A stretch of DNA of 64,000 nt from NCBI GenBank assembly GCA_963735035.1, contig CAVTJJ010000003.1, positions 140,489-204,488 on the forward strand, written 5' to 3'. This document shows, piece after piece, positions 9,931 to 42,949 of the stretch. The translations under genes were made by a program, and so were the position numbers. Numbering within the stretch: position 1 is the stretch's first letter; each line of letters starts with the position of its first letter. Origin of the DNA: an uncultured candidate division Zixibacteria bacterium (GTDB lineage Bacteria; Zixibacteria; MSB-5A5; GN15; FEB-12). The notes under the pieces were generated by a model. The model was not told the DNA's origin. It saw only the letters and a list, made by a program, of their open reading frames with translations, and searched no databases.

Positions 9931-10514
9931 AATCGGTTGCGGCAGGTCCTGACCGAGTCCGCCACGGGCGGATGAGGTTGTGACCTGCCGCCTTCAGCGC
10001 GACTCAAGCTCGGGTAGGGCAGAACCCTCGCCGCCTCGGCGAGTGGTTCTGCCATCTTCGCGCGTGACTTCCGTAGCGTGGCAATCTCAAATCGGCACCA
10101 TCGGTGCGAGCCGGCAGATGTGGACATCTGCCGGGCACGTGGTATGAACGGCGAATGAGGCGCTATTCGGTTGCGGCAGGTCCTGACCGAGACCGTCGGA
10201 GGCGGTCGAGGTTGTGACCTGCCGCATTCCGCGCGGCTCAAGTTCGGGTAGGGCAGAACCCGCGCCGCTTCGGCGAGCGGTTCTGCCATCTTCGCGCGTG
10301 GCCTCCATAGCGTTGCAATCTCAATTCGACGCATCAGTGCGAGCCGGCAGATGTGGACCCGCCTGCGGCGGGCCGGGCACTCTTCATGAGCGAGCTTCCC
10401 CTCTGTCTTGCCCCGCTTCAGGCGGGGCATCCAGGGCGACAAATCCCACCCGTTGGGTGGGGTACCGAAGAGTGTTGTGCGAGCCGGCAGATGTGGGCAT
10501 CTGCCGGGCACGTG
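9931..10514. repeat. Mosaic palindromic-repeat cluster: two ~234-bp tandem units plus a partial third
   Basis: Unit 1 (~9931-10141) and unit 2 (~10165-10380) align almost base for base. Each holds three hairpins: GCGGCAGGTC...GACCTGCCGC, GTAG-GGCAGAACC...GGTTCTGCC, and GCCGGCAGATGTGG.CATCTGCCGGGCAC. The tail (10381-10514) has further hairpins (CCCCGCTTCAGGCGGGG, CCCACCCGTTGGGTGGG) and a third copy of the last palindrome. Confidence 0.85.
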
Positions 10515-13315: not shown

Positions 13316-13339
13316 ATGTGCCTCACAGCAGCTGTGAGC

Positions 13340-13715
13340 CAGCGAAAGCAGAAGATAAGCCGAGTTCTGTGCGTCCTGTTGCGCAGGACGGCAGTCATTG
13401 ATCTGGGCGGCCGGTTGCCCGGTCCGCTCCTGCGGCCTACCCGGGAATGGTAGCGGAGCGAATCAACTCCTCTTCCCCTATTTGGCCTTGCTCCGAGCGG
13501 GGTTTACCCACTGCTCCATCTCTGGAGTCAGCCGTGGTCTCTTACACCGCGATTTCACCCTTACCTCCGAACGAGTCGGCGGCGGTATGTTTCTGTGGCA
13601 CTTTCCGTCGGATTACTCCGCCCCGGCGTTACCGGGCGCTCTGATTCTGTGGAGCTCGGACTTTCCTCACTCTAAACGATGTTTAAAGCGCGACTGCTCC
13701 TTCTACTTTCGTCGT
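13340..13715 (-). ncRNA. rnpB: RNase P RNA, bacterial type A
   Basis: The minus strand carries three universal conserved regions. They are GAGGAAAGTCCGAGCTCCACAG (13647-13668), AAGGGTGAAATCGCGGTGTAAGAGACCAC (13534-13562) and ACAGAACTCGGCTTAT (~13355-13370). A P1 helix can form between CGAAAGTAGAA (13701-13711) and TTCTGCTTTCG (13343-13353). Ends are good to about +/-10 nt. Confidence 0.9.
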
Positions 13716-16154: not shown

Positions 16155-16228
16155 TGGGCAATACTGGACTCGAACCAGTGACCTCTCGGATGTGAACCGA
16201 ACGCTCTAACCAGCTGAGCTAATTGCCC
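16155..16228 (-). tRNA. tRNA-Val (anticodon CAC)
   Basis: The minus strand reads GGGCAAT TA GCTC AGCTGGTTA GAGC G TTCGG TTCACAT CCGAG AGGTC ACTGG TTCGAGT CCAGT ATTGCCC A. This folds as a full cloverleaf. CCA is not encoded. Confidence 0.9.
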
Positions 16229-16257
16229 ATTCTTCAGTCCTATCCGTGCCCACAATC

Positions 16258-16331
16258 TGGGCCCAGTAGGACTTGAACCTACGACCCGCTGATTATGAGT
16301 CAGCTGCTCTAACCAACTGAGCTATGGGCCC
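16258..16331 (-). tRNA. Elongator-type tRNA with CAU anticodon (tRNA-Ile2, lysidine type, or tRNA-Met)
   Basis: The minus strand reads GGGCCCA TA GCTC AGTTGGTTA GAGC A GCTGA CTCATAA TCAGC GGGTC GTAGG TTCAAGT CCTAC TGGGCCC A. Bases 1-72 pair and the anticodon stem lacks the 3 G-C run, so it is not an initiator. The TTCAAGTCC T-arm resembles Ile isoacceptors (from memory). Confidence 0.85.
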
Positions 16332-18072: not shown

Positions 18073-18131
18073 GGCAGACGTCCTCGTCTGCCCCGTCTAC
18101 GCTCTGGTGCCCCACCGCTTGCGGTGGGTGG
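18073..18131. repeat. Two REP-like hairpins, including a diverged copy of the RAYT-flanking REP
   Basis: GGCAGACGTCCTCGTCTGCC+CCGTCTAC (18073-18100) and GGTGCCCCACCGCTTGCGGTGGGTGG (18106-18131). The second matches GGTGCCCCAGCGCTTGCGCTGGGA at 24487, with paired changes on both stem arms. Confidence 0.7.
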
Positions 18132-18561
18132 AGAACGCGCGGATTGAATATTTCATTTAGGCAAGATTGAACCGGACCCCAACTTGGCTACCTGATTTGC
18201 CATTGACGGAGTGGCAATTCTGAGACATGGTGACTCCAAAATCTGTCTCCGATTCGCAACTGCCTGACTCGAGCTGACCCGATATCGCTATGGTATCGTA
18301 CTGCGAAGCAGCAAGTTGTGATTTCATTCCAATCCGGCATCCACATTGCAGTCGCGGAAGACGAAGTGAAGCCCGAGGATAGTACCGCAGACCAAATTGT
18401 GTGCGAAGAGCGTGACTATTCGGCTTTGTGAGTGGGAGCGACATATGCTCAAAACAGCTTGTTGTCTACTTGCGATAAGAGTATGCGAGCCTGCACGGAG
18501 AATCTGTTTGATAATGCGGGCTTCAACAGTTCAGATCAACGGAACGTGTGTCAGAAATCCA

Positions 18562-20880
18562 ATGAATGCGAATGCGTTCGTTCTGACGCTGATAATACTC
18601 GCGAGTATGATCTCCGTACCAAAGTGCGGCGCTCAAGATGATTTCGGGGAGAGTATTAGCACCGTCTCCTATTGTGACAGCACCAATCAGTGGCTCGCCG
18701 GTTTCTGGATAAGCACGGACACGGCCTCCACTTCGAGACAATCCCGGCAGGAATCTGAATTGTCAGGTAGGCTGATGATCGAACTAGTCGGAGTGACCGG
18801 CATCAACATCATGCACAACAGCGGCGGATTTTATCTACCATCGTTCGAAATTGATTTTGACAGCATAGTCTGCGGCCACGCTTTTGCCCGCCATGAACTG
18901 GAGGTGTCGACCAGCACTCGAGACGAGCACTGGTCGCAATTCTGGCAGGACCTGGGGTACCCCAGTTACAAAGGGACCGTTCTCCTCCAGGCAAGCGGAG
19001 GCGAAGATAAGTACGAGTTCATTTTGTCGGATCCGGTTGACAGTATTCCTCGACGCCTGACCCTGGTGATACAGTGCGATCGCTGGAGTGCGAGCGAGAC
19101 AGACAAAGCGCTGAATTATTCTTCATCTGACGTTCTGGTGTACAGTTTCACCCGCGGTACAGATACGAGTACAACCGACTGCACGACACCGGCTTGGAGT
19201 GGACTGTCGGACGTGGAATCAAGGGGCAGCGAAGTCTTTGCCACGTCGGATAAGGGACTCTTCGTATTTGACATCCAAACCCCAGCCTCTCCGCAATTTG
19301 TGTCCTTTGTCAAGTCCGAGGCGGTGACGGATCTTTACGTCACGATATGCGACAGCACACACGTCTGTGTGTACCCAAAATTCTGGCAAATGCACGATCT
19401 TCAGATCATAGACGTGAGTAATCGACGCCAACCGCAATTGTGCGGCCGATATGTGTTCTCTGTCGCAACTGCCGACGACGATCCGGCGCGACTTCTGGAC
19501 CTGGCCTCAATTGACCGAACCATCTATGCTCTTATCGGGACGACGAAGAAGAGATACTTACAGGTACTGACAACTGTCGATTATTCGTCCATCACCCTTA
19601 GTTCAAGCATAGAATTATCTCGGAAATGCGACCGAATCGCGGTGAACGACCGGATTTTCGCCGTCGCCGGAGATGACGGCCTGTTTGTATACGACAGGAA
19701 TGCGCTTGAAGCGATGACCAGCGGAGCGAAACCGCTCAGCGGAGACAAACCACTCAAAGGAAGATTCACCGGCATTCTGGTATTGAATGACAGTACAATT
19801 GTCGGCATCAAGAAATCGGCACTCGAGGTCATACACTCTGACGGCCCGACCCTCTTGACGGTCGGCAAGTGCAAACTTGAGTCCGAGACGGCCTACTATT
19901 ACAAGGCCCGGGGTAATCTGGTCATAGTCGATCAGGACATCGTCGACTGCTCGATCCTGGAACGGCCGGTTCTGCAATCCAGCTATTTTCTTTTCGACGA
20001 TCCGCTTTCAATAGCGGGCCAATATGCTTGTGTAGCGACGCCCCTCGGACTGGACGTATATGACATTTCGGATCCGACAAAACCTGTCTCAGTCGGGAAA
20101 TATGACGAGGAGGTCTACCGGAACCTGACTGATCCTGACCGCATAAACGCCAGGCGGCTGGTCCAGTCAGCGGAAGCTGGAGATCTTCAGGCCCAATATG
20201 AACTGGGTTGGTGTTATGCCGAGGGTCGGGGGGTTGAGACGGACGCAGAAACCGCTCGAATGTGGATCCGGAAAGCAGCCGATGGAGGATTCGCCAAAGC
20301 TGAGTACGATCTGTTTCTGTACGGCCTCGAAACCTTCCCCGTCGACACTTCAGCCAATTTTCAGTATTGCCGAAGAGCAGCGGATCACGGATCAATTGAA
20401 GCCGAGTACGCGCTGGGGAAATGCTATTTGACCGGCTACGGCCTGAGTATTGACACGGCCCAGGCTGAAGCTGTCTTTCAACGACTTGCACAGACCGGTG
20501 ACCCAGATGCTATGGTTCAGCTCTTTGATCTTAGGCAGGAGAAAGCGCGGACTGCGTCCGATACTGCGGATGTTTTGAGCTGGGCCCGGCAGGCTGCCAG
20601 CCATATGTCTCCAGCAGGTCAATATCGACTTGGGCTGTGCTATTTCGATGGCTTTGGAGTTCAAGAGTCGGTCACTGAGGCTGTCCGACTTATTCGATTC
20701 GCAGCCGACAAAGGGTATGCCTTTGCTCAGACCGAACTGGGAATATGTTACGATGAAGGGCGCGGCGTGGAACAAGACAAAGCAGAAGCGATGAAGTGGC
20801 TTCAGAAGGCCGCCGACCAAAATGATTTGCGCGCACGAGGGCTCATCCTTGTGCATCAACTGCGTCAACAAGACCAATGA
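18562..20880 (+). CDS. Secreted protein: N-terminal LVIVD-repeat (beta-propeller-like) region fused to C-terminal Sel1/TPR-like repeats
   Basis: I chose the start at ATG 18562 (MNANAFVLTLIILASMISVPKCGAQ, a signal peptide). LVIVD-like units are GLFVFDIQTPASPQF, LQIIDVSNRRQPQL and GLDVYDISDPTKPV. About 6-7 Sel1 units follow (AQYELGWCYAEGRGVETDAETARMWIRKAADGG, AEYALGKCYLTGYGL, GQYRLGLCYFDGFGV, AQTELGICYDEGRGVEQDKAEAMKWLQKAA). Confidence 0.65.
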   Translation: MNANAFVLTLIILASMISVPKCGAQDDFGESISTVSYCDSTNQWLAGFWISTDTASTSRQSRQESELSGRLMIELVGVTGINIMHNSGGFYLPSFEIDFDSIVCGHAFARHELEVSTSTRDEHWSQFWQDLGYPSYKGTVLLQASGGEDKYEFILSDPVDSIPRRLTLVIQCDRWSASETDKALNYSSSDVLVYSFTRGTDTSTTDCTTPAWSGLSDVESRGSEVFATSDKGLFVFDIQTPASPQFVSFVKSEAVTDLYVTICDSTHVCVYPKFWQMHDLQIIDVSNRRQPQLCGRYVFSVATADDDPARLLDLASIDRTIYALIGTTKKRYLQVLTTVDYSSITLSSSIELSRKCDRIAVNDRIFAVAGDDGLFVYDRNALEAMTSGAKPLSGDKPLKGRFTGILVLNDSTIVGIKKSALEVIHSDGPTLLTVGKCKLESETAYYYKARGNLVIVDQDIVDCSILERPVLQSSYFLFDDPLSIAGQYACVATPLGLDVYDISDPTKPVSVGKYDEEVYRNLTDPDRINARRLVQSAEAGDLQAQYELGWCYAEGRGVETDAETARMWIRKAADGGFAKAEYDLFLYGLETFPVDTSANFQYCRRAADHGSIEAEYALGKCYLTGYGLSIDTAQAEAVFQRLAQTGDPDAMVQLFDLRQEKARTASDTADVLSWARQAASHMSPAGQYRLGLCYFDGFGVQESVTEAVRLIRFAADKGYAFAQTELGICYDEGRGVEQDKAEAMKWLQKAADQNDLRARGLILVHQLRQQDQ

Positions 20881-22349
20881 GATCTAGCGATAGGAGAAGG
20901 TCAATGCCAGTGATAGGTACTTCTTCAAGAGTGCAGAGAATTGCGCTTGCCGCGGTTTTGCTATGCTTGGCCGGTTGCGGGGGCGGACTTCTTGACAAGG
21001 CCGTTTCCGGTCTTGTCGATCAACTTGGACCGGACCAGCGCTTCGAAGTAAGGCGCACCAGTTTAGGTGAGGTCCAGTTTGCAATCATGGTCCCGGGCGC
21101 CACAGTAGTCAACAGTCAGAATAACAGCTATGCTTGCGTGATCAATTTGAAAGGCAAGTATTCGGTTGCGCTCAACGGCCAGAAAGAAAATGTGTTTGAT
21201 TCAATCCTGCAGAATCGCGCCGTTTTCAGTCCCGACGGCACGCGGCTCGCCTATGCGGCCATGCAGGGTCAGCTGTGGGCGGTCATGGTTGACCATCTAC
21301 CCGGCCCAAAGTACGAAGAGATCGCAAACGTGGTGTTCAGCCCCGACAGTCGGAGAATCGCCTATGCCGCGCGGCAGGACGGCCTCTGGGTCATCAACGT
21401 CGATGACCACGAGGGTCCAGCTTTCGGTAGTATAGGAACGCCGGTCTTCAGCCCCGATAGCAAGCATGTCGCTTACTCGTCGGTATCCGATGCCGGCGCC
21501 CAACTCCTGGTGGATCACAGAGTGATTGCTCAGGCAGAGGGCTTCCGCCGTGGTCAGATCGTATTCAGCCCTGACGGCCGCCGTGTAGCATTTGCGGCCC
21601 GTTCGGGCGAGCAATGGGCGGTGGCGGTCGACAGCACCAAGGGGAGACTATACGATGATGTAAACAATATCGGCTTTGACCCAAATGGCTCGGCCGTCGC
21701 CTACATCGCCAAGACGAACGACGAGGATGTCCTCGTAATTGGCGAAAAGGAAATCGCTCGCCACGACCATATCTTCAAGTATGGTTTCCTTCCCGCATCC
21801 GACCAAATTGTATACGCTGCCACTGATGGTGACACCGCTCTCGTCCTTCTGGGAGATAGTGTAATCGGTAAATGGACGACTTCTTTACCACCGGACTTTG
21901 TGCTCGATTCTTCTCACGTGCACACTACTTTCCTGGGGGCCAGGGAAAAGAGTCGCATATCAGTAGTGGTGGATGGTCGGGAAGGAAACGCATATGACAG
22001 CGTTGGTACGATTGTACATTCCCCGTCAGGTGACCGTTATGCCTTTGTGGCTCAGAAGAAGGCGTCGATCTTTGTTGTTGTCGACGGACATGAACAGGGG
22101 CCTTACGAAGATCAATATCTATTCCTTTCACCACCGTCTTTCAGTACTGACGGAAAGTATGTCGCGTATGGGGTGCTGATCAAAGGCAAATCGAGCATAT
22201 TTGTTAACGGTATACCTGGTGAACATATTAGTGCCTATTTACCGTCCGGGAGACCGGCCGTAACCTGGGATTCACCGAAGACGTTTCATTACCTGGCAGC
22301 CTTCGACAATAACATAAATCTCGTTGAAGAGGAATTCCGCAAACCGTAG
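20877..22349 (+). CDS. Lipoprotein with WD40-like (PD40/TolB-type) beta-propeller repeats
   Basis: Lipobox LLCLAGCGG. Reiterated units: VFSPDGTRLAYAA, VFSPDSRRIAYAA, VFSPDSKHVAYSS, VFSPDGRRVAFAA, GFDPNGSAVAYIA, VHSPSGDRYAFVA, SFSTDGKYVAYGV. The ATG overlaps the upstream stop (ATGA). Confidence 0.7.
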   Translation: MRSSDRRRSMPVIGTSSRVQRIALAAVLLCLAGCGGGLLDKAVSGLVDQLGPDQRFEVRRTSLGEVQFAIMVPGATVVNSQNNSYACVINLKGKYSVALNGQKENVFDSILQNRAVFSPDGTRLAYAAMQGQLWAVMVDHLPGPKYEEIANVVFSPDSRRIAYAARQDGLWVINVDDHEGPAFGSIGTPVFSPDSKHVAYSSVSDAGAQLLVDHRVIAQAEGFRRGQIVFSPDGRRVAFAARSGEQWAVAVDSTKGRLYDDVNNIGFDPNGSAVAYIAKTNDEDVLVIGEKEIARHDHIFKYGFLPASDQIVYAATDGDTALVLLGDSVIGKWTTSLPPDFVLDSSHVHTTFLGAREKSRISVVVDGREGNAYDSVGTIVHSPSGDRYAFVAQKKASIFVVVDGHEQGPYEDQYLFLSPPSFSTDGKYVAYGVLIKGKSSIFVNGIPGEHISAYLPSGRPAVTWDSPKTFHYLAAFDNNINLVEEEFRKP

Positions 22350-22494
22350 GAAATCCCGAGATTCGCTAAGATTTCGATACCGATTTGACGGATGGGTCTT
22401 GGCAAAGCGTACACCGTAGGGCGTCCGGTCGGTTATGGAGACCAAGGCCTGAGACAACAGTCACCCAGCCATAAATAGTGGGCCACCCGGTGAT

Positions 22495-22521
22495 GTCGAA
22501 ACCGCAGGGGTTTCGACCTAC
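22495..22521. repeat. 27-nt hairpin-CTAC element (GTAG-hairpin family)
   Basis: GTCGAAACC GCAG GGGTTTCGAC CTAC, lying between convergent gene ends. Confidence 0.6.
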
Positions 22522-22560: not shown

Positions 22561-24315
22561 CTACTTCGCCGGATGCCGCTTGATCACCACCACCGTGATG
22601 TCATCGAAAACATGCGTCGGCGAGGCATACGCATACACTGCTTTACCAATCGCCTCGCCTATCTCGATACTCTTAGCGTTGCGGTTGGCCTTAATTACGT
22701 TGGTCAATCCCGCCAGGCCGAATTCGTGGCCGTCCTTGTCGAAAACTTCCGTGACACCGTCGGTGTACATCACAATCATCTCGCCCGGCTGAAGCATGAA
22801 CGCGCGCTCTTCGAACGTCGCCTGTTTGTTGACACCGAGCAACACGCCGCCAACGTTGAGAAGTTCCACCGTGCCGTCCAGACGAAACCAGAGCGGCGGA
22901 TTGTGGCCGAAATTGGAGAAGGTGAAGATATGGTTGGTCGTGTCGAGCACGCCGTAGACCGCGGTCACGTACATCCCCGACTCGAGCGATTCACAGAGCA
23001 GCGAATTGACTTTCTGGCCGATCGTGCGAATCGAGTAGTTGTTGCGGATCTCGGCGATCAGCGACGCCCGGAACGACGCCATGACCAGCGCGGCCGGCAT
23101 CCCCTTGCCGGAAACGTCGGCGATAGCGATCCCAAGATGGCTATCGACAATGCGAATGAAATCGTAATAGTCGCCGCCAACCTGACCCGACGGCGTATTG
23201 TGCCCGCTTATGTCATAACCAGAGACAGTCGGATCCTTCTTTGGCAGGAAAGTACGCTGCGTGTCGCGGGCCACGCCGAGTTGAGCTTCGAGCTGTTTTG
23301 CATTCAGATTGCGTTCAACCATCCGGGCACGCTCGATGGACATTCCGGCCTGCGACGCGAACGCCCGGATCAAATTGACGTGGCTGCGGTCGAAAGCACT
23401 GTGATCGTTGGATTCGAGATTGATGACGCCGATAACACGGTCATTGACTTTGATCGGCACGGCTATTTCGCTGCGCGTGTCGGCGGTCATCTGAACGTAG
23501 CGCGAATCCGAGGTGACGTCGTCGACAATTACTTCCTTCCCCGAAGTCGCCGCCGCACCGACCAGACCTTCGTCGCACTTGAGATGCAGGCTGTCTTCGG
23601 ACTCGGGGTTATAGCCCACCGTGTAAATGGCGTTGAGGTCGACTCCTTTATCGTCACAGAGAAAGACGCCGCCGACCTGGAAGTTGACTACCTGCTTGAG
23701 GGAATCGAGAATGGCCGCGAGCACTTCCTGGAGTGACAACTTCGATGACAACTTCTGTCCAATCTCGTACAGCAGCGTCTTTTCAAGCGCTTCTCGTTTC
23801 GCCTCGCGGTAGAGATAGGCGTTTGTGACGGCTACCGCGATCTGGTTGTTCAGACCGCTGAGGACGTCCAGGTCGGCTTGACCGAACTCCCCGTTGAGCT
23901 TGTTGACCGCCTCGACCACGCCGATCAGTTTGCCGCGTCCGATCAGCGGCAGAGCGACCAGCGAGCGCGCCATCACGCCTACCTGGCTGCCCATATCGTG
24001 ATCGACCCGGGGATCATTGGCGGCATCGTTGATAATGACCGCCTCCTTGCGATCCATCACCCAGCCGAGCACACCCGCGGACGGCTGACGGCCGAGCGTC
24101 TGCATCTTGAAATCACGGTCGGACATAACTCGGGTGCGACGTTCGCGCGGGTCGGGGTCATGGCGATAGATGGCGGCCACTTCGGAATCGACCGCCGCCA
24201 TGACGAGTTTGAGCACCATCTCGATCAACTCTTCGTATTCGAGGGTGCTGTTGAAAGTTCGGGCGGCCTCGAGCATCAGCTTCTCGACGCGGCTTTGTCT
24301 TATTTCGTCGGACAT
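22561..24315 (-). CDS. GAF-GAF-PP2C (SpoIIE/RsbU-type) serine phosphatase
   Basis: 584 aa. Two GAF-like regions, then a SpoIIE-type domain with the GGDYYDF motif, MPAALVMA and YTDGVTE. Confidence 0.8.
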   Translation of the reverse strand: MSDEIRQSRVEKLMLEAARTFNSTLEYEELIEMVLKLVMAAVDSEVAAIYRHDPDPRERRTRVMSDRDFKMQTLGRQPSAGVLGWVMDRKEAVIINDAANDPRVDHDMGSQVGVMARSLVALPLIGRGKLIGVVEAVNKLNGEFGQADLDVLSGLNNQIAVAVTNAYLYREAKREALEKTLLYEIGQKLSSKLSLQEVLAAILDSLKQVVNFQVGGVFLCDDKGVDLNAIYTVGYNPESEDSLHLKCDEGLVGAAATSGKEVIVDDVTSDSRYVQMTADTRSEIAVPIKVNDRVIGVINLESNDHSAFDRSHVNLIRAFASQAGMSIERARMVERNLNAKQLEAQLGVARDTQRTFLPKKDPTVSGYDISGHNTPSGQVGGDYYDFIRIVDSHLGIAIADVSGKGMPAALVMASFRASLIAEIRNNYSIRTIGQKVNSLLCESLESGMYVTAVYGVLDTTNHIFTFSNFGHNPPLWFRLDGTVELLNVGGVLLGVNKQATFEERAFMLQPGEMIVMYTDGVTEVFDKDGHEFGLAGLTNVIKANRNAKSIEIGEAIGKAVYAYASPTHVFDDITVVVIKRHPAK

Positions 24316-24423
24316 AGTGGGGGTAAGGTAAGGGATTGAAGGGGATTGTCAAATGGTGAAGAGGACCGTTGGAGAGTGTAACAGCTACAATCAATGCGCG
24401 ACGTGGGGGCCGGCCCAACTTCT

Positions 24424-24523
24424 GGTGCCCCGGCGCTTGCGCTGGGATTCCTATCAGAAACCCCTACATCCAACTCTGCTCGTTTTGGTGCCCCAGCGCT
24501 TGCGCTGGGATGCCTATCAGAAA
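24424..24523 (+). repeat. Two REP copies on the 3' side of the RAYT gene
   Basis: GGTGCCCCGGCGCTTGCGCTGGGATTCCTATCAGAAA (24424-24460) and GGTGCCCCAGCGCTTGCGCTGGGATGCCTATCAGAAA (24487-24523). They are inverted relative to the copies at 25060-25283. Confidence 0.85.
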
Positions 24524-25047
24524 TCCGGTTCATCCATTGAGATCGGCACATCCTTCATTCCCGAATACCAGTTGTAACTCGACCATATCCATTGACCTGG
24601 TTGAGTCACCAGACCACGAGTCACTGGATTCTTGTGACAGTACTCAATCTTCAACCTCACTGACTCCGATGAGCGGCAATTGTGGTCATAGCACCGCGGC
24701 AACCAAAGTGCTTCCTGTAATTCACCGTGACGAAACACTTCGAGCTCACCGGAACTAAGACCAGCCCTAAACAACAGTGGCAATATTCGTCTGGCCGAAC
24801 GCGACTTCAGTTCACCGACAACTATACCAAGCCGACAACTAGCGAGTAGCTTTAGGACTAAATGTACGTGCTCAGGCATTACTACATAAGCATACAGTCG
24901 AAGCGAGTACTTCAGTTTGACCGCAAACAGCTCCTCGACGAAGACTCGAATGACGGAATCATCGAAGAGGAGGGGTAGACGCTGGTGACAGGAGAAAGTG
25001 ACAAAGCGGACGTCGGAGAGGTGATCGTAATGTTTCAATTCAGTCAT
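24517..25047 (-). CDS. REP-associated tyrosine transposase (RAYT; IS200/IS605-like Y1 HUH transposase)
   Basis: 176 aa. HUH motif in VVMPEHVHLVL, the catalytic-Tyr motif in IEYCHKNPVTRGLV, and the typical N-terminus FVTFSCHQRLPLL. The 3' end overlaps a REP. Confidence 0.85.
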   Translation of the reverse strand: MTELKHYDHLSDVRFVTFSCHQRLPLLFDDSVIRVFVEELFAVKLKYSLRLYAYVVMPEHVHLVLKLLASCRLGIVVGELKSRSARRILPLLFRAGLSSGELEVFRHGELQEALWLPRCYDHNCRSSESVRLKIEYCHKNPVTRGLVTQPGQWIWSSYNWYSGMKDVPISMDEPDF

Positions 25048-25059
25048 AGTGCATCAAGA

Positions 25060-25283
25060 CCCAGCGCAAGCGCTGGGGCACCAGAATATATGCTTACATT
25101 CCAGCGCAAGCGCTTAGGCACCAGAGTATATGCTTACATCCCAGCGCAAGCGCTGGGGCACCAGAATATATGCTTACATTCCAGCGCAAGCGCTTAGGCA
25201 CCAGAGTATATGCTTACATCCCAGCGCAAGCGCTGGGGCACCAGAGTATATGCTTACATCCCAGCGCAAGCGCTGGGGCACCG
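25060..25283. repeat. Tandem array of six 40-bp REP units
   Basis: Copies start at 25060, 25100, 25140, 25180, 25220 and 25260. The unit is CCCAGCGCAAGCGCTGGGGCACCAGA(A/G)TATATGCTTACAT. The first four alternate between two variants (GGGG..AATATA..ATT and TAGG..AGTATA..ATC), which gives an 80-bp higher-order period. Confidence 0.9.
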
Positions 25284-25327: not shown

Positions 25328-26863
25328 TCACAACCACAAGTGCCGGTCGAGCGTCCGGTAGTGGATCGCCTCGGCGACATGTCCCATCTGGATGTCATCC
25401 GAATTGTCCAAATCGGCTATTGTGCGCGAGACTTTCAATATCCGGTCGTACGCCCGCGCCGATAATCCCTGCTGTTTGATCGCCAGCGCCAGTAACGCTT
25501 GTGATTTTTCATCGAGTTGGCAGAAACGCCTGATATCGCGCGACTCCATCTGGGCGTTCGAGTAAAGCGACTTCTCTCCCTTGAACCGGTCAAGCTGTCG
25601 CTGTCGTGCCGAGTTGACCCGTTTGCGGATGATCTCGGACTTTTCCCCGCGCGTTTCCGACGACAACTCTTTGAATTTCACCGACGGCACCGAGACATGA
25701 ATATCGATCCGGTCCAGAAGCGGTCCGGAGATGCGCGACATATAACGCTGGATTTCACCCGGCGTGCATTTGCACTCATGCAATTGTTCTCCGCTGTATC
25801 CGCACGGACAGGGGTTCATCGCGGCTACGAGCATGAATCGGGCCGGGTAGGTCAGAGTCGTGGCGGCCCGCGAAATAGTGACGTGATTGTCCTCCATCGG
25901 CTGGCGCAGCATCTCCAAGATGTCCTTCTTGAACTCGGGGAGTTCGTCGAGAAAGAGCACGCCGTTGTGCGCGAGAGATACTTCGCCGGGTTTCGGGATC
26001 GCGCCTCCGCCTATCAATCCGGCATAGGAGATCGTGTGATGCGGTGATCGCGCAGGGCGAGTAGCAACCAGGGCCGAGTCGGCGGGAAGACGCCCGGCCA
26101 CCGAGTGAATCTTGGTGGTTTCGAGCGCCTCGCCCAGAGTCATGTCAGGTAAAATTGTGGGCAGCCTTCGCGCCAGCATCGTCTTCCCCGACCCGGGCGG
26201 ACCGATCATGATGACGTTGTGACCGCCGGCCGCGGCAACTTCGAGTGCCCGCTTGGCCGTTTCCTGACCTTTGACATCGCAAAAATCGACCGGGTAGATG
26301 CGGGCGCGGTCGAAAACCGCCTTGATGTCGATCTTGTGGGGCTGGATGGTCGTTTGGTCTTCGAAAAAGTGCACCGCCTCCTTGAGCGACTTGACCGGAA
26401 ATACCGGCACCGTCCCGGCCATGGCGGCCTCGCAGGCGTTTTCAGCCGAGACCAACATCCCTTTGAGATGTGGCTGGGTGAGACTCATGGCCATAGGCAA
26501 CACCCCCGGTACCGGCCTGAGAGCGCCGTCGAGCGACAGTTCCCCCAGCATGACATATTCATCAAACCGCTCGCATAGAACTTGACCGGTGGCCGCCAGG
26601 ATACCAACCGCGATCGGAAGATCGAAGGCACAACCCTCCTTCCTGATGTCAGCCGGGGCCAGATTGATGGTGACTTTCTTGGACGGAAAAATGAAATCGG
26701 AATTCTTGATGGCGGCCGTCACCCGCTCCTTGGATTCCCTCACCGCCCCGTCGGGCAATCCGACCGTAATGAACAACGGAAGTTGCTGCTGGATATCGGC
26801 TTCAACCTCGACCGTGTAAGCTTCGACACCCAGTGTGGCCGCTGATAAGACTTTGGAAAGCAT
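25328..26863 (-). CDS. yifB: YifB/ComM family Mg-chelatase-like AAA+ ATPase
   Basis: 511 aa. N-terminus VLSAATLGVEAYTVEVEADI, Walker A MIGPPGSGKTM, GVLFLDELPEF, and a C-terminal helix-turn-helix region. Confidence 0.85.
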   Translation of the reverse strand: MLSKVLSAATLGVEAYTVEVEADIQQQLPLFITVGLPDGAVRESKERVTAAIKNSDFIFPSKKVTINLAPADIRKEGCAFDLPIAVGILAATGQVLCERFDEYVMLGELSLDGALRPVPGVLPMAMSLTQPHLKGMLVSAENACEAAMAGTVPVFPVKSLKEAVHFFEDQTTIQPHKIDIKAVFDRARIYPVDFCDVKGQETAKRALEVAAAGGHNVIMIGPPGSGKTMLARRLPTILPDMTLGEALETTKIHSVAGRLPADSALVATRPARSPHHTISYAGLIGGGAIPKPGEVSLAHNGVLFLDELPEFKKDILEMLRQPMEDNHVTISRAATTLTYPARFMLVAAMNPCPCGYSGEQLHECKCTPGEIQRYMSRISGPLLDRIDIHVSVPSVKFKELSSETRGEKSEIIRKRVNSARQRQLDRFKGEKSLYSNAQMESRDIRRFCQLDEKSQALLALAIKQQGLSARAYDRILKVSRTIADLDNSDDIQMGHVAEAIHYRTLDRHLWL

Positions 26864-32228: not shown

Positions 32229-32298
32229 GCCCTTAGGCTCCTGACACTCATATCTTTGTTTGCCCTCGATGTCAGGAGCCTAAGGGCTCCTGACCTAC
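32229..32298. repeat. Right part of the interrupted REPIN-like element (target duplication, first-hairpin arm, spacer, second hairpin-CTAC)
   Basis: GCCCTTAGGCTCCTGAC, a 25-nt spacer, then GTCAGGAGCCTAAGGGCTCCTGACCTAC (32271-32298). Confidence 0.75.
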
Positions 32299-33588: not shown

Positions 33589-33620
33589 AGCCGGCAGATG
33601 TGGGCATCTGCCGGGCACGA
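33589..33620. repeat. Copy of the dispersed palindrome GCCGGCAGATG-TGGG-CATCTGCCGGGCAC
   Basis: 10-bp perfect stem with a 4-nt loop, beginning 12 nt after the desaturase stop. Confidence 0.8.
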
Positions 33621-33669
33621 TGCAGGGGTGTAGAGAGCCCACCGCGGCGGGCCGCCCACAAACCCCTGT

Positions 33670-33913
33670 GTCAGGCGTCAAGTCCGCCTGACCTACGAAT
33701 CTTCGCCATAGAGCGTGCGGTCAGGCGTCCCTGCCTGACTGCAGTAGATAATTGAGACGGCCGTCGGGCAGAGACGCCCGACGGCACACTTGAGTGTCAG
33801 GCGTCAAGTCCGCCTGACCTACTAATCTTCGTCATAGAGCGTGCGGTCAGGCGTCCCTGCCTGACTGCAGTAGATAATCGAGACGACCGTCGGGCAGAGA
33901 CGCCCGACTGCAC
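33670..33913. repeat. Two tandem 126-bp units, each built from three hairpins (GTAG-hairpin family mosaic)
   Basis: Units start at 33670 and 33796. Each contains GTCAGGCGTCAAGTCCGCCTGAC-CTAC, GCGGTCAGGCGTCCCTGCCTGACTGC and CGTCGGGCAGAGACGCCCGAC. Confidence 0.85.
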
Positions 33914-34117
33914 GTTTGAATTCCTATCTCCACACATATTGATGTAAGCAAATTTCAGCAACCGGGACGCGAAATTAACGTATTCCAAGAGATATGTCTG
34001 CTATATTCCTGCCCGGTCCAAGAGTCGGAAAATTGCGATGTGACGTTCAAACAAAATCCCGACCTGATTCGACTATAAATTAACTGAATGACATAAACCT
34101 CTCAAGGAGAAGGCTTA

Positions 34118-38452: not shown

Positions 38453-38479
38453 GTCAGGCCCCGAGTTGGCCTGACCTAC
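38453..38479. repeat. 27-nt hairpin-CTAC element (GTAG-hairpin family)
   Basis: GTCAGGCCCCGAGTTGGCCTGACCTAC, in a divergent promoter region. Confidence 0.7.
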
Positions 38480-39340: not shown

Positions 39341-39532
39341 ACCGGCAGATGTGGGCATCTGCCGGGCACGGTTAGTTCGTAGGTCAGGCGGACTTGACGC
39401 CTGACATTTATGTGTGCCGTCGGGCGTCTCTGCCCGACGGCGGCCTGGACAGATACTGCGGTCAGGCAGAGACGCCTGACCGCACGTTCAAGTATAGCAA
39501 TCATCGTCAGGCCCCGAGTAGGCCTGACCTAC
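39341..39532. repeat. Mosaic cluster: one GCCGGCAGATG palindrome plus four GTAG-hairpin family units
   Basis: ACCGGCAGATGTGGGCATCTGCCGGGCAC (39341-39371). GTAGGTCAGGCGGACTTGACGCCTGAC (39379-39405) is the exact reverse complement of 33670-33696. CGTCGGGCGTCTCTGCCCGACG and GCGGTCAGGCAGAGACGCCTGACCGC follow, then GTCAGGCCCCGAGTAGGCCTGACCTAC (39506-39532). Confidence 0.85.
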
Positions 39533-39571: not shown

Positions 39572-39862
39572 CGTTTTGTGCACCCACCTCTGAACCGCTG
39601 CCCTGGAGCGCTTCGAACAGCCGGCTCCAGCCGGGTAGCCCTGCAACACCCGTCAGATTCTTTCTACGGCTGCTACCTTCCGGTCCTGACCGGGTTCAAA
39701 AGGCTGACGTCGTACAAGACCCGACCTTCAACACCACTTATCCGTCGACAAACCAGGCCCGCTAAGCCCGCGGGTGGGAATTCAACCCCGGTAAAGCGGA
39801 TTCCGGGTTACAGGGCACCGCTGGCTCCCCGTCTAGCACGCTTTGGGGCCGCCCCACTCATA
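39572..39862 (-). ncRNA. ffs: Signal recognition particle RNA, long (Bacillus-type, Alu-domain-containing) form
   Basis: The minus strand contains the universal helix-8 motif GGTCAGGACCGGAAGGTAGCAGCC (39668-39691). Its 5' portion, GCGTGCTAGACGGGGAGCCAGCGGTGCCCTGTAACCCGGAATCCGC...GAATTCCC, parallels the B. subtilis scRNA Alu domain (compared from memory). The GGTGCAC 3' end is followed by a terminator. Ends are good to about +/-20 nt. Confidence 0.8.
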
Positions 39863-39889
39863 TTGAGCGGGACGGCCTCTTATTCAAAA

Positions 39890-39962
39890 TGGAGCCAGCC
39901 GGGATCGAACCGGCAGCCTTCGCATTGCGAACGCGACGCTCTCCCAGTTGAGCTATGGCCCC
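39890..39962 (-). tRNA. tRNA-Ala (anticodon CGC)
   Basis: The minus strand reads GGGGCCA TA GCTC AACTGGGA GAGC G TCGCG TTCGCAA TGCGA AGGCT GCCGG TTCGATC CCGGC TGGCTCC A. The G3:U70 Ala identity pair is present. Confidence 0.9.
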
Positions 39963-40079
39963 AAACTCAGCGCCAGCTTCGGGCCAGAAGGATAATATCG
40001 GGCGGCCTTCCCGCCAAGTGGTTTTTGAGTGGGGCTTACTCAATGCCTATTGACCGCTTAGGAGCCCGCCGCACCACAA

Positions 40080-40685
40080 TCACTTCAACAGCCCGATTCG
40101 TACCCCAAAGCTTGGGCCGGCCTTGATGTCATAGTTGTCGTTACCGCCTCGGAGCGTCTTGAGCATGTTGGTCTCAATTAGAAATCCGGTTCGTGGCGTC
40201 AGACGGCAGACAACCTGTAGAAAGGGCCGCAACGTCACGTACTGGCTGGCCTTGTATCGGAATACCTCCTCAAGTAGCGCGGCTCCGCAGGCTACCCCCG
40301 GGCGAAGACTCCACTGGCTCCCTTTCGGCTGGTAGTGAACACTCAGGCGCAGGGCAGGATTAATGGACTTGGCGGTTATGTCCCCCCCAAGGATTTCTTT
40401 ACGTAGCTGAAATACGTCGATCGTCAGCCCCAGCCAGATCGATCGAAATACACCCTGGTCGAAGGAAGCTCCCGCCGACCAACCCATATCCGAATCGATT
40501 GAGGCGTCATAGAATCCGGTGTCCTTGGCGCGAGCATCGATGGTCATGCCGTCAAGAAAGCCGAACATCACTGCGAATTCCCCACGCGCTTGCTTGCCCT
40601 CGGCCGCTGATGCACTGCCACACAAAATCAGCAGCGCGAAACACGCCGCTCCCCACCAACGCCCTCCTCCACACTTTGCACTCAT
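40080..40685 (-). CDS. Small outer-membrane beta-barrel protein (paralog 1)
   Basis: 201 aa. Signal peptide (LILCGSASAAEG) and alternating hydrophobic beta-strand pattern. Weakly similar to paralogs 3 and 4. Confidence 0.5.
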   Translation of the reverse strand: MSAKCGGGRWWGAACFALLILCGSASAAEGKQARGEFAVMFGFLDGMTIDARAKDTGFYDASIDSDMGWSAGASFDQGVFRSIWLGLTIDVFQLRKEILGGDITAKSINPALRLSVHYQPKGSQWSLRPGVACGAALLEEVFRYKASQYVTLRPFLQVVCRLTPRTGFLIETNMLKTLRGGNDNYDIKAGPSFGVRIGLLK

Positions 40686-42919: not shown

Positions 42920-42949
42920 GTGCCCGGCAGATGCCCACATCTGCCGGCA
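42920..42949. repeat. Inverted copy of the GCCGGCAGATG palindrome
   Basis: GTGCCCGGCAGATG CCCA CATCTGCCGGC, followed by further short hairpins (CCCGCCTGGGGCGGG, CCCCCGATCAGGTCGGGGG). Confidence 0.8.

Follow-up and report, generated by a model that had tools for sequence, protein, structure and literature searches.

In Escherichia coli K-12, a single HUH/Y1 gene (tnpA_REP, or yafM) lies between repetitive extragenic palindromes (REPs) of opposite orientation that carry a tetranucleotide tag at their 5' side, an arrangement known as a REPtron (PMC3333891, PMC3479197). This REPtron occupies one fixed locus and was lost from some lineages (PMC3333891). Genes of the respective type, encoding REP-associated tyrosine transposases (RAYTs), are found in about a quarter of the sequenced species and in many phyla. 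Their subclass 2.4 (Group 4 of Bertels) is common in Cyanobacteria, Bacteroidetes and Chlorobia and occurs in scattered other phyla; its REPs show three G-C pairs at the stem base, and REPs inserted in frame between the HUH motif and the Tyr motif are tolerated by its genes (PMC6006769, PMC5581495). Both REP dimers in head-to-tail order and clusters that arise by reiteration of a REP with flanking DNA are on record (PMC3733652), and enzyme-based models for tandem REP amplification exist (PMC3333891). Here, we study a RAYT gene and its flanking repeats in a 64-kb stretch of DNA from a Zixibacteria genome, which was analysed as a whole and is referred to as the window.

We read the locus, with a probability of about 0.85, as a REPtron of a Zixibacteria chromosome, i.e., as a RAYT gene between inverted copies of its own REP. 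It is an ordinary example of the known system, and its repeat has been locally amplified into short tandem arrays. The evidence consists of the family and fold of the protein, the motifs for catalysis that it carries, the covarying hairpin, a bracket of repeats that is conserved, the extragenic dispersal of the REP in other genomes, and a locus that is shared with a relative. In the literature searched, we found no report that links Zixibacteria with REPs.

The RAYT gene and its product

The gene spans 24517-25047 on the minus strand and encodes 176 aa. An initial annotation, made from the sequence alone, had described this open reading frame (ORF) as a Y1 HUH transposase of RAYT type that carries PEHVHLV and YCHKNPV, and ORF and motifs are both present where it had placed them. 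The HUH motif PEHVHLV provides H60 (24870-24868) and H62 (24864-24862), while the catalytic tyrosine Y136 (24642-24640) lies within YCHKNPV and within a predicted helix that covers residues 127-143. The start codon is consistent with the N-terminus of the homologues, MT(E/K)L(R/K)HYD, and the stop codon is located at 24517-24519.

With regard to hidden Markov models (HMMs), the protein passes both the NCBIfam RAYT model NF047646 (REP_Tyr_transpos), where it reaches 95.5 bits with a cut-off of 80, and Pfam PF01797 (Y1_Tnp), where its 29.2 bits exceed the gathering score of 23. It stays below the threshold of the IS200 equivalog NF033573 (24.4 bits, cut-off 55). In a sequence search of the PDB, the top match and sole clear relative is E. 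coli TnpA_REP bound to REP (4ER8; E 9e-8), while IS200-type transposases are marginal. An AlphaFold model built from 54 homologues (mean pLDDT 91.9) gives the same picture: the predicted fold ranks 4ER8_A first over the full length (E 1.5e-9, TM-scores 0.66/0.70, 180 aligned columns), and the IS608, ISDra2 and IS200 transposases (IS200/IS605 TnpA) come after it. Judged by these profile, sequence and model matches, the protein is a RAYT (TnpA_REP), and the initial assignment is confirmed.

Alignments of 27 and 54 homologues show H60, H62, W115, R118, C119, D121, H122, N123, C124, R125, H138 and P141 to be invariant, and Y136 is kept in at least 90% of the homologues. The stretch W115-L-P-R-C-Y-D-H-N-C-R125 forms a putative guide-recognition block. 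In E. coli TnpA_REP, the GTAG tag is contacted by W94, Q95, E100, H101 and R104 (PMC6006769). W115, D121, H122 and R125 align with such guide-contacting residues; here, D121 replaces the E of E. coli, as D also does in subclasses 2.5 and 2.7.

We also observed four cysteines (C20, C119, C124, C137), partly within the motifs RCYDHNCR and YCH, of which three are invariant and the fourth is nearly so in the clade. E. coli TnpA_REP has F, A and I at the positions that match clade cysteines.

The REP repeat and its copies at the locus

To count REP copies, the window was searched for the 24-mer GGTGCCCCAGCGCTTGCGCTGGGA with up to 3 mismatches and compared with 100 dinucleotide-preserving shuffles. 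We find 9 matches in the window and 0 in the 100 shuffles. Two plus-strand copies, starting at 24424 (1 mismatch) and 24487 (0), are downstream of the RAYT gene and a third one, at 18106, is located elsewhere. The minus-strand copies start at 25059 (1 mismatch), 25099 (3), 25139 (0), 25179 (3), 25219 (0) and 25259 (0). The eight flanking copies are those named in the initial annotation, which had missed the ninth at 18106 (plus strand).

As single-stranded DNA (ssDNA), the REP folds into a stem of 7 bp (CCCAGCG/CGCTGGG) that is closed by a CTTG loop; the tag GTGC directly adjoins the 5' foot of the stem. The fold energy of the intact REP is -8.1 kcal/mol (z -2.9 compared to shuffles). On the gene strand, the upstream copies read GGTGCC...GGGA while the downstream copies are the reverse complement. 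That is, upstream copies are in sense and downstream copies are inverted, such that the tag ends face away from the RAYT gene on both flanks.

The upstream array (25059-25282, minus strand) was identified from sequence repeats and by Tandem Repeats Finder (5.7 copies, 91% matches). It comprises six 24-nt REPs with a 40-bp period, i.e., each unit consists of a REP and a 16-nt linker, and its gene-proximal REP stops 11 nt ahead of the ATG. All six REPs are direct tandem repeats of the same orientation; an assignment to the bacterial interspersed mosaic elements (BIMEs), where orientations alternate, was rejected on these grounds. From distal to gene-proximal, the units are ordered A A B A B A'. 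The degenerate REP of a B unit, GGTGCCTAAGCGCTTGCGCTGGAA (25179-25202, minus strand, 3 mismatches), recurs identically in the second B unit (25099-25122, minus strand). Its three changes remove the three bottom stem pairs, and the remaining fold (-2.9 kcal/mol, z -0.17) is no better than those of shuffles. The six upstream copies of the initial annotation hold in number, but two of them (25099, 25179) have a ruined stem; good hairpins are formed by the other four and by the proximal downstream copy. The 16-nt linkers are identical or one base apart between units and could not be traced to the 5' or 3' flank of a REP, since respective local alignments were no better than for shuffles (p 0.18-0.34).

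Within the array, the segments 25061-25162 and 25141-25242 (102 nt) are 100% identical at an offset of 80 bp. This implies that the latest growth step was the duplication of an A+B block. Since this step copied a dead REP, it did not need REP recognition, which argues for slippage or unequal recombination rather than for a REP-specific enzymatic step.

On the gene's other flank, the proximal REP (24487-24510, plus strand) is an exact match, inverted with respect to the upstream array and 6 nt past the stop codon. The distal REP (24424-24447, plus strand) carries one A>G change that results in a G.T mismatch in the stem (-6.1 kcal/mol). Both are part of two 44-nt units (24420-24463 and 24483-24526, together 24420-24526, plus strand) that share 91% identity at a distance of 63 bp. 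In each of them, a 6-nt spacer separates the REP from the last two RAYT codons with the stop codon, i.e., the downstream pair is a short tandem duplication that took along the 3' end of the RAYT gene. The reported overlap of a REP with the stop codon is correct only for this duplicated unit, given that 6 nt lie between the stop codon and the end of the REP core at 24510.

A regularly spaced array with a palindromic core could in principle be a CRISPR-like array, a set of ordinary intrinsic terminators or a series of chance palindromes. We regard this explanation as refuted and give it practically no probability. The near-identical linkers are not unique spacers, for which reason a CRISPR array was rejected, and the chance expectation for the palindromes is 0. 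The intact REPs are not followed by a terminator-like T-run in a scan of the locus; terminator-like matches are found there only in the two degenerate units and are no more numerous than in shuffles. Furthermore, no Rfam family matches at the array, and the same tag and hairpin bracket RAYT genes in about 70 unrelated contigs. The locus scan identified no sigma-70 promoter either.

By analogy with E. coli TnpA_REP, the protein is predicted to be a monomeric HUH/Y1 ssDNA endonuclease-ligase of RAYT type that would bind a REP extruded as a hairpin on ssDNA. H60 and H62 would hold a metal ion, and Y136 would cut nearby DNA to form a 5'-phosphotyrosine link that the free 3'-OH of another cut could resolve. 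Such chemistry might copy, move or amplify REPs in trans while the gene itself stays put between opposite REPs. On both flanks, head-to-tail reiteration has multiplied the REP along with a few neighbouring bases, to six copies at 40 bp upstream and two at 63 bp downstream. Binding, cleavage and strand transfer are inferred, and so is whatever part the enzyme may have had in the growth of the arrays.

Related loci and the descent of the REPtron

A protein search provided 815 relatives, the best of which is 62% identical; named relatives are from Zixibacteria metagenome-assembled genomes (MAGs). A scan of metagenome contigs identified 303 encoding loci, from which 80 were taken for flank analysis. 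Together with the window and with L009 and L010, which are two REPtrons of one MAG, 83 loci were examined in two ways, namely for inverted upstream/downstream matches and for tagged hairpins. GTG[GC]-tagged hairpins adjoin the RAYT gene in 73/83 loci. The modal layout, i.e., a sense-strand REP upstream and an inverted one downstream, is found in 24 of the 50 loci whose flanks extend for at least 300 nt on either side, and most of the others among these show small variations of it. The bracket of inverted REPs seen by the initial annotation is real and recurs in about 70 related loci.

The REP consensus of the clade is G-GTG[GC]-CCCA(n)-loop-(n)TGGG, in which the tag and the bottom of the stem (CCCA/TGGG) are conserved. 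The canonical GTGG is the commoner tag and GTGC the minority form. The inner stem is found as AGCG, AACG, ACCG, ACAG, ACCC, ACAA, ATCT or GGGG, each with its complement. Since the inner stem varies by compensatory pairs, we consider the hairpin to be under selection and to co-evolve with its gene. Hairpins are also more frequent downstream of GGTG[GC] than of permuted tags (24% vs. 8%), but we do not rely on this comparison given that the 3' arm of the hairpin contains tag-like words.

Arrays are rare among these loci: of the 73 in which a REP is recognisable, only 4 have at least five direct copies. The asymmetry, which the initial annotation called unusual, is uncommon in this clade, although tandem REP reiteration as such has been described before (PMC3733652, PMC3333891). 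In L009, one REP lies upstream and eleven follow downstream with a period of 60 bp, L010 (region 1101-2159, MAG MFD10097.bin.1.9) has eight tandem copies of the variant CCCACCG/CGGTGGG at a period of about 50 bp, and L055 has a five-copy array. Since the arrays of the window, L009, L010 and L055 use unrelated linkers and different periods, they arose independently at each locus. The RAYTs of L009 and L010 are 48% and 45% identical to that of the window (tblastn), while their REPs are identical to the window's or one compensatory pair apart.

Two observations concern REPs within coding sequences. In the relatives P0085 and L032, a REP is inserted in frame between the HUH motif and the Tyr motif. 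The reading frame of P0081 continues into a REP array, such that its C-terminal extension consists of REP sequence in translation (ERPPTASGGAPYKDD, three times).

With regard to dispersal, we scanned one genome per species for the exact 22-mer, in a collection that does not include the genome of the window; each MAG found is the only genome of its species in the collection. The 22-mer is present in 15 stretches from 7 MAGs. Thirteen of these are single copies and the other two are the REPtrons L009 and L010. Most single copies (11/13) are outside any ORF of at least 150 aa, typically 12-110 nt from a gene end, and the extragenic singletons are spread over at least 4 to 6 contigs per genome. 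REPINs, i.e., two inverted REPs less than about 130 bp apart, were considered and rejected: the copies at the locus are direct tandem repeats, and none of the 13 dispersed singletons has an inverted partner within 160 nt. One occurrence stands apart: a Candidatus Berkelbacteria MAG of the candidate phyla radiation (L004:1119-1142) holds the exact 22-mer once, followed by a T-run as in an intrinsic terminator, which could be due to convergence, contamination or transfer.

Within the window, a sister REP with a compensatory stem change from G-C to C-G, GGTGCCCCACCGCTTGCGGTGGGT, is located extragenically at 18106-18129 (plus strand). It starts 41 nt downstream of the start of a different, GTGG-tagged hairpin (18073-18092) and is the same variant as in the array of L010. 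A more distant extragenic relative, GTGC-CTCACAG-CAG-CTGTGAG (13318-13338, plus strand), is 3 nt away from the RNase P RNA gene; its stem also flanks the RAYTs of L063 and L073. Finally, a decayed relative, GTGGCCCACTATTTATGGCTGGG (22465-22486, minus strand), lies in the gap between the ORF at 20877-22349 and the GAF-SpoIIE gene introduced below. The form to be compared with it, GTGGCCCACCATTTATGGTGGG, flanks RAYTs in 13 instances.

The RAYT gene sits in the gap between the gene of a YifB-type Mg-chelatase-like ATPase (yifB; 25328-26863) and a GAF-GAF-SpoIIE phosphatase gene (22561-24315), and all three are on the minus strand. In L016, which encodes the RAYT closest to that of the window (63% identity), the same gap holds a REP, the RAYT gene and an inverted REP, followed by GAF-SpoIIE. 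Both REPs of L016 carry the same compensatory variant CCCAACG/CGTTGGG. The RAYT has diverged to an extent comparable with its neighbours, i.e., 82% identity for YifB and 51% for GAF-SpoIIE, which fits vertical descent with losses. In L058, the RAYT gene is likewise just downstream of yifB. The pattern of presence and absence at this gap matches the fixed locus with losses of E. coli.

Several observations weigh against the REPtron reading. The tag is GTGC and not the canonical GT[AG]G, and the position that aligns with E. coli Q95 is Leu (residue 116), while more than 90% of the relatives have Gln. Taken together, REP recognition may differ here or be impaired. No exact REP copy was found outside the REPtron in the window, only variants, such that the copy number in the genome may be low. 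The polarity of L010 is opposite, with tags next to the gene, i.e., orientation is not strictly fixed in the clade. Last, the RAYT gene is absent from the yifB locus in L096 to L100, although their YifB proteins are more similar to that of the window (83-91%). The gap is empty and without REP remnant in L097 (YifB 83%; 92 nt) as well as in L099 and L100 (88%; 98 nt), and it holds other genes in L096 (91%) and L098 (86%). Given these absences and the low GC content of the gene, it may have arrived recently or been inserted repeatedly.

A rival reading is that of a relic, in which the enzyme is inactive, the hairpins are kept as stabilisers or attenuators of host transcripts, and the arrays grew by replication slippage only. 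The exact 80-bp block copy of a dead REP points in this direction, as do the exchange of the near-invariant Gln and the missing exact dispersed copies; also, the three genes and the array share one strand, such that REPs would be transcribed given read-through. Nevertheless, we consider a relic unlikely. The ORF is intact and of full length with all catalytic and structural invariants of the clade, L009 and L010 share Leu at position 116 yet have perfect REPs, the four intact array copies and the proximal downstream copy still form perfect hairpins, and the intact REPs lack the T-run of a terminator. Among the related loci, Gln at position 116 is found with GTGG in 40 cases and with GTGC in 15, while Leu or Lys occurs with GTGC in 7/9; these counts are small and phylogenetically non-independent, and thus provide only a lead.

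Another rival is a mobile element that is autonomous and entered the site between yifB and GAF-SpoIIE recently, either IS200/IS605-like or as a REPtron that jumps as a whole. Besides the empty or otherwise occupied gaps, the composition of the gene speaks for it: its GC content is 48.8% (GC3 52.5%) compared to 56.2 ± 1.8% (GC3 66.3 ± 5.1%) for 21 other genes of the window, i.e., about 4 standard deviations (SD) below its neighbours. The exact REP is furthermore common to MAGs labelled as different phyla. We nevertheless judge such an element very unlikely, because the IS200 model failed, there is no tnpB, and the flanking hairpins are inverted while IS608-type single-strand excision requires them on the same strand. 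The window contains a single RAYT-type gene (tblastn), and the closest RAYT occupies the same gap in L016 with a divergence in line with its neighbours. Only 12/72,556 plasmid records match the RAYT, all with at most 30% identity and thus none a close homologue, and no phage record matches. An IS200/IS605 insertion sequence was accordingly rejected in view of the inverted hairpins, the single copy, the neighbours yifB and GAF-SpoIIE, and the HMM score below cut-off.

A related question is whether the REPtrons of this Zixibacteria-centred clade depart from the strictly vertical, species-specific mode of enterobacteria and pseudomonads. Three observations lead to this idea, which we regard as quite doubtful: an identical 24-nt REP in MAGs labelled Zixibacteria, 'Ignavibacteria' and unclassified, where the adjacent RAYTs share only 45-48% identity with one another, the presence or absence of the gene at one hotspot among close relatives, and the GC content some 4 SD below that of host genes. 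They would fit a unit of RAYT and REP that passes from one lineage to another or enters anew at sites marked by REPs, and would also fit an unusually constrained REP that is recognised by a broad enzyme clade. A switch in specificity, marked by the GTGC tag together with the exchange of Gln for Leu, is a possibility linked to this idea.

Genomic surroundings and comparison with known systems

YifB relatives with 77-96% identity carry the Zixibacteria label, and the host is a Zixibacterium. Other features of the window are the genes of the RNase P RNA (13341-13709), the large SRP RNA (39576-39841) and three tRNAs (16155-16331, 39890-39962), all on the minus strand. A 182-aa ORF (39578-40126) overlaps the SRP RNA and is probably no gene. 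On the plus strand, the region 18397-22349 encodes one Sel1/LVIVD-repeat protein and one PD40 beta-propeller between the GAF-SpoIIE gene and hpaB, bounded by the REP clusters 18073-18129 and 22465-22517. The two genes have the lowest GC content among those measured (52.8% and 53.4%), and an EB_dh gene takes their position in L097. The region looks like a REP-bounded variable region.

The window hosts two further REP families. The second family, GTGC-CCGGCAGATG-(4 nt)-CATCTGCCGG, has five perfect extragenic copies, four in minus-strand sense (10111-10134, 10484-10507, 33591-33614, 39342-39365) and one on the plus strand (42924-42947); a similar element adjoins the RAYT gene in the metagenome locus L030. 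The third family has the canonical GTAG tag, mostly with GTAG-GTCAGGnn stems, and seven extragenic copies (22495-22517, 32271-32294, 33670-33692, 33796-33818, 38453-38475, 39383-39405, 39506-39528), and no cognate RAYT gene was found for it in the window. Among the tetranucleotides at the 5' foot of the window's perfect hairpins of at least 7 bp, GTGC (13) and GTAG (10) lead, and the next commonest is observed 4 times.

Some of these REPs are part of larger repeats. A 126-bp composite of three different tagged hairpins is present twice in tandem at 33668-33919 (95% matches) and recurs inverted 5.5 kb away at 39376-39489 (71-nt arms, 92% complementary). The pair brackets genes for an M13 peptidase and a DUF4139/DUF4140 protein as well as a 268-aa ORF. 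The gap 9933-10514 is filled by a 162-nt direct repeat (88% identity) and REP copies; a 204-aa ORF that spans it is without any Pfam match and probably spurious.

With regard to significance, the locus and its relatives extend REP/RAYT systems, on clear evidence, to Zixibacteria, an uncultured sediment phylum. About 300 loci, in which tag and stem base are conserved and the inner stem covaries, provide a data set from which the recognition rules of a RAYT clade could be read, and the independent arrays of the window, L009, L010 and L055 are natural material to test published amplification models. The picture of what REPtrons are is unchanged, and both RAYTs outside Proteobacteria and tandem REP amplification are already published. 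The GTGC tag and the arrays are minor variants. What makes the system slightly distinctive are the GTGC tag, the Gln-to-Leu change, singletons and direct arrays in place of REPIN doublets, and near-identical REPs across species.

The E. coli K-12 REPtron is the best match in sequence and fold. Both consist of a single HUH/Y1 gene between opposite REPs with a 5' tag and have the W..R..[ED]H..R block in common; the locus appears stable apart from losses in individual lineages, and the number of flanking repeats varies. The differences are a sequence identity of only 23%, the tag (GTGC/GTGG in the clade vs. GTAG), and the stem, which is short and perfect here (7 bp) while the E. coli enzyme needs a mismatch or bulge. 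Furthermore, the REPs of the window are singletons or direct tandem copies and not inverted BIME/REPIN pairs, and the clade shows its own motifs (EHVH, RCYDHNCR, YCHxNP) and three invariant cysteines.

Subclass 2.4 is similar in its hosts outside Proteobacteria, the three G-C pairs at the stem base, modest copy numbers and the WQ motif. The in-frame insertions of P0085 and L032 are a trait published for this subclass only. On the other hand, its published motifs NH[IFV]H and YIxNNP contrast with EHVH and YCHxNP of the window clade, which also has D and not E ahead of the His, a feature of subclasses 2.5 and 2.7. The clade motifs EHVH, W[QL]xRCYDHNCR and YCHxNP match no published subclass signature exactly, i.e., the placement, compared by motif alone, is ambiguous. 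The statement of the initial annotation that such systems are described mainly in Proteobacteria is only partly right, given that Cyanobacteria, Bacteroidetes, Chlorobia and further phyla are also reported to have class 2 TnpA_Y1 genes with REPtron-like flanks (PMC6006769, PMC5581495).

The REPIN-RAYT systems of Pseudomonas and Stenotrophomonas (PMC2817692, PMC3116915) share the RAYT gene flanked by its cognate REP, the co-evolution of REP and RAYT, several REP families per genome (presumably each with its own RAYT) and the reported tandem reiteration (PMC3733652). In contrast, REPIN doublets are absent here, the copy number appears far lower, and the REP is common to several species while REPs are usually described as species-specific. 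IS200/IS605 elements (IS608, ISDra2), finally, have in common the HUH/Y1 fold, subterminal hairpins with a 5' guide tetranucleotide, and single-strand chemistry. They differ in that the protein of the window is longer, with a RAYT-specific C-terminal part, and fails the IS200 model, and in that the unit studied here is a single copy without tnpB whose hairpins are on opposite strands.

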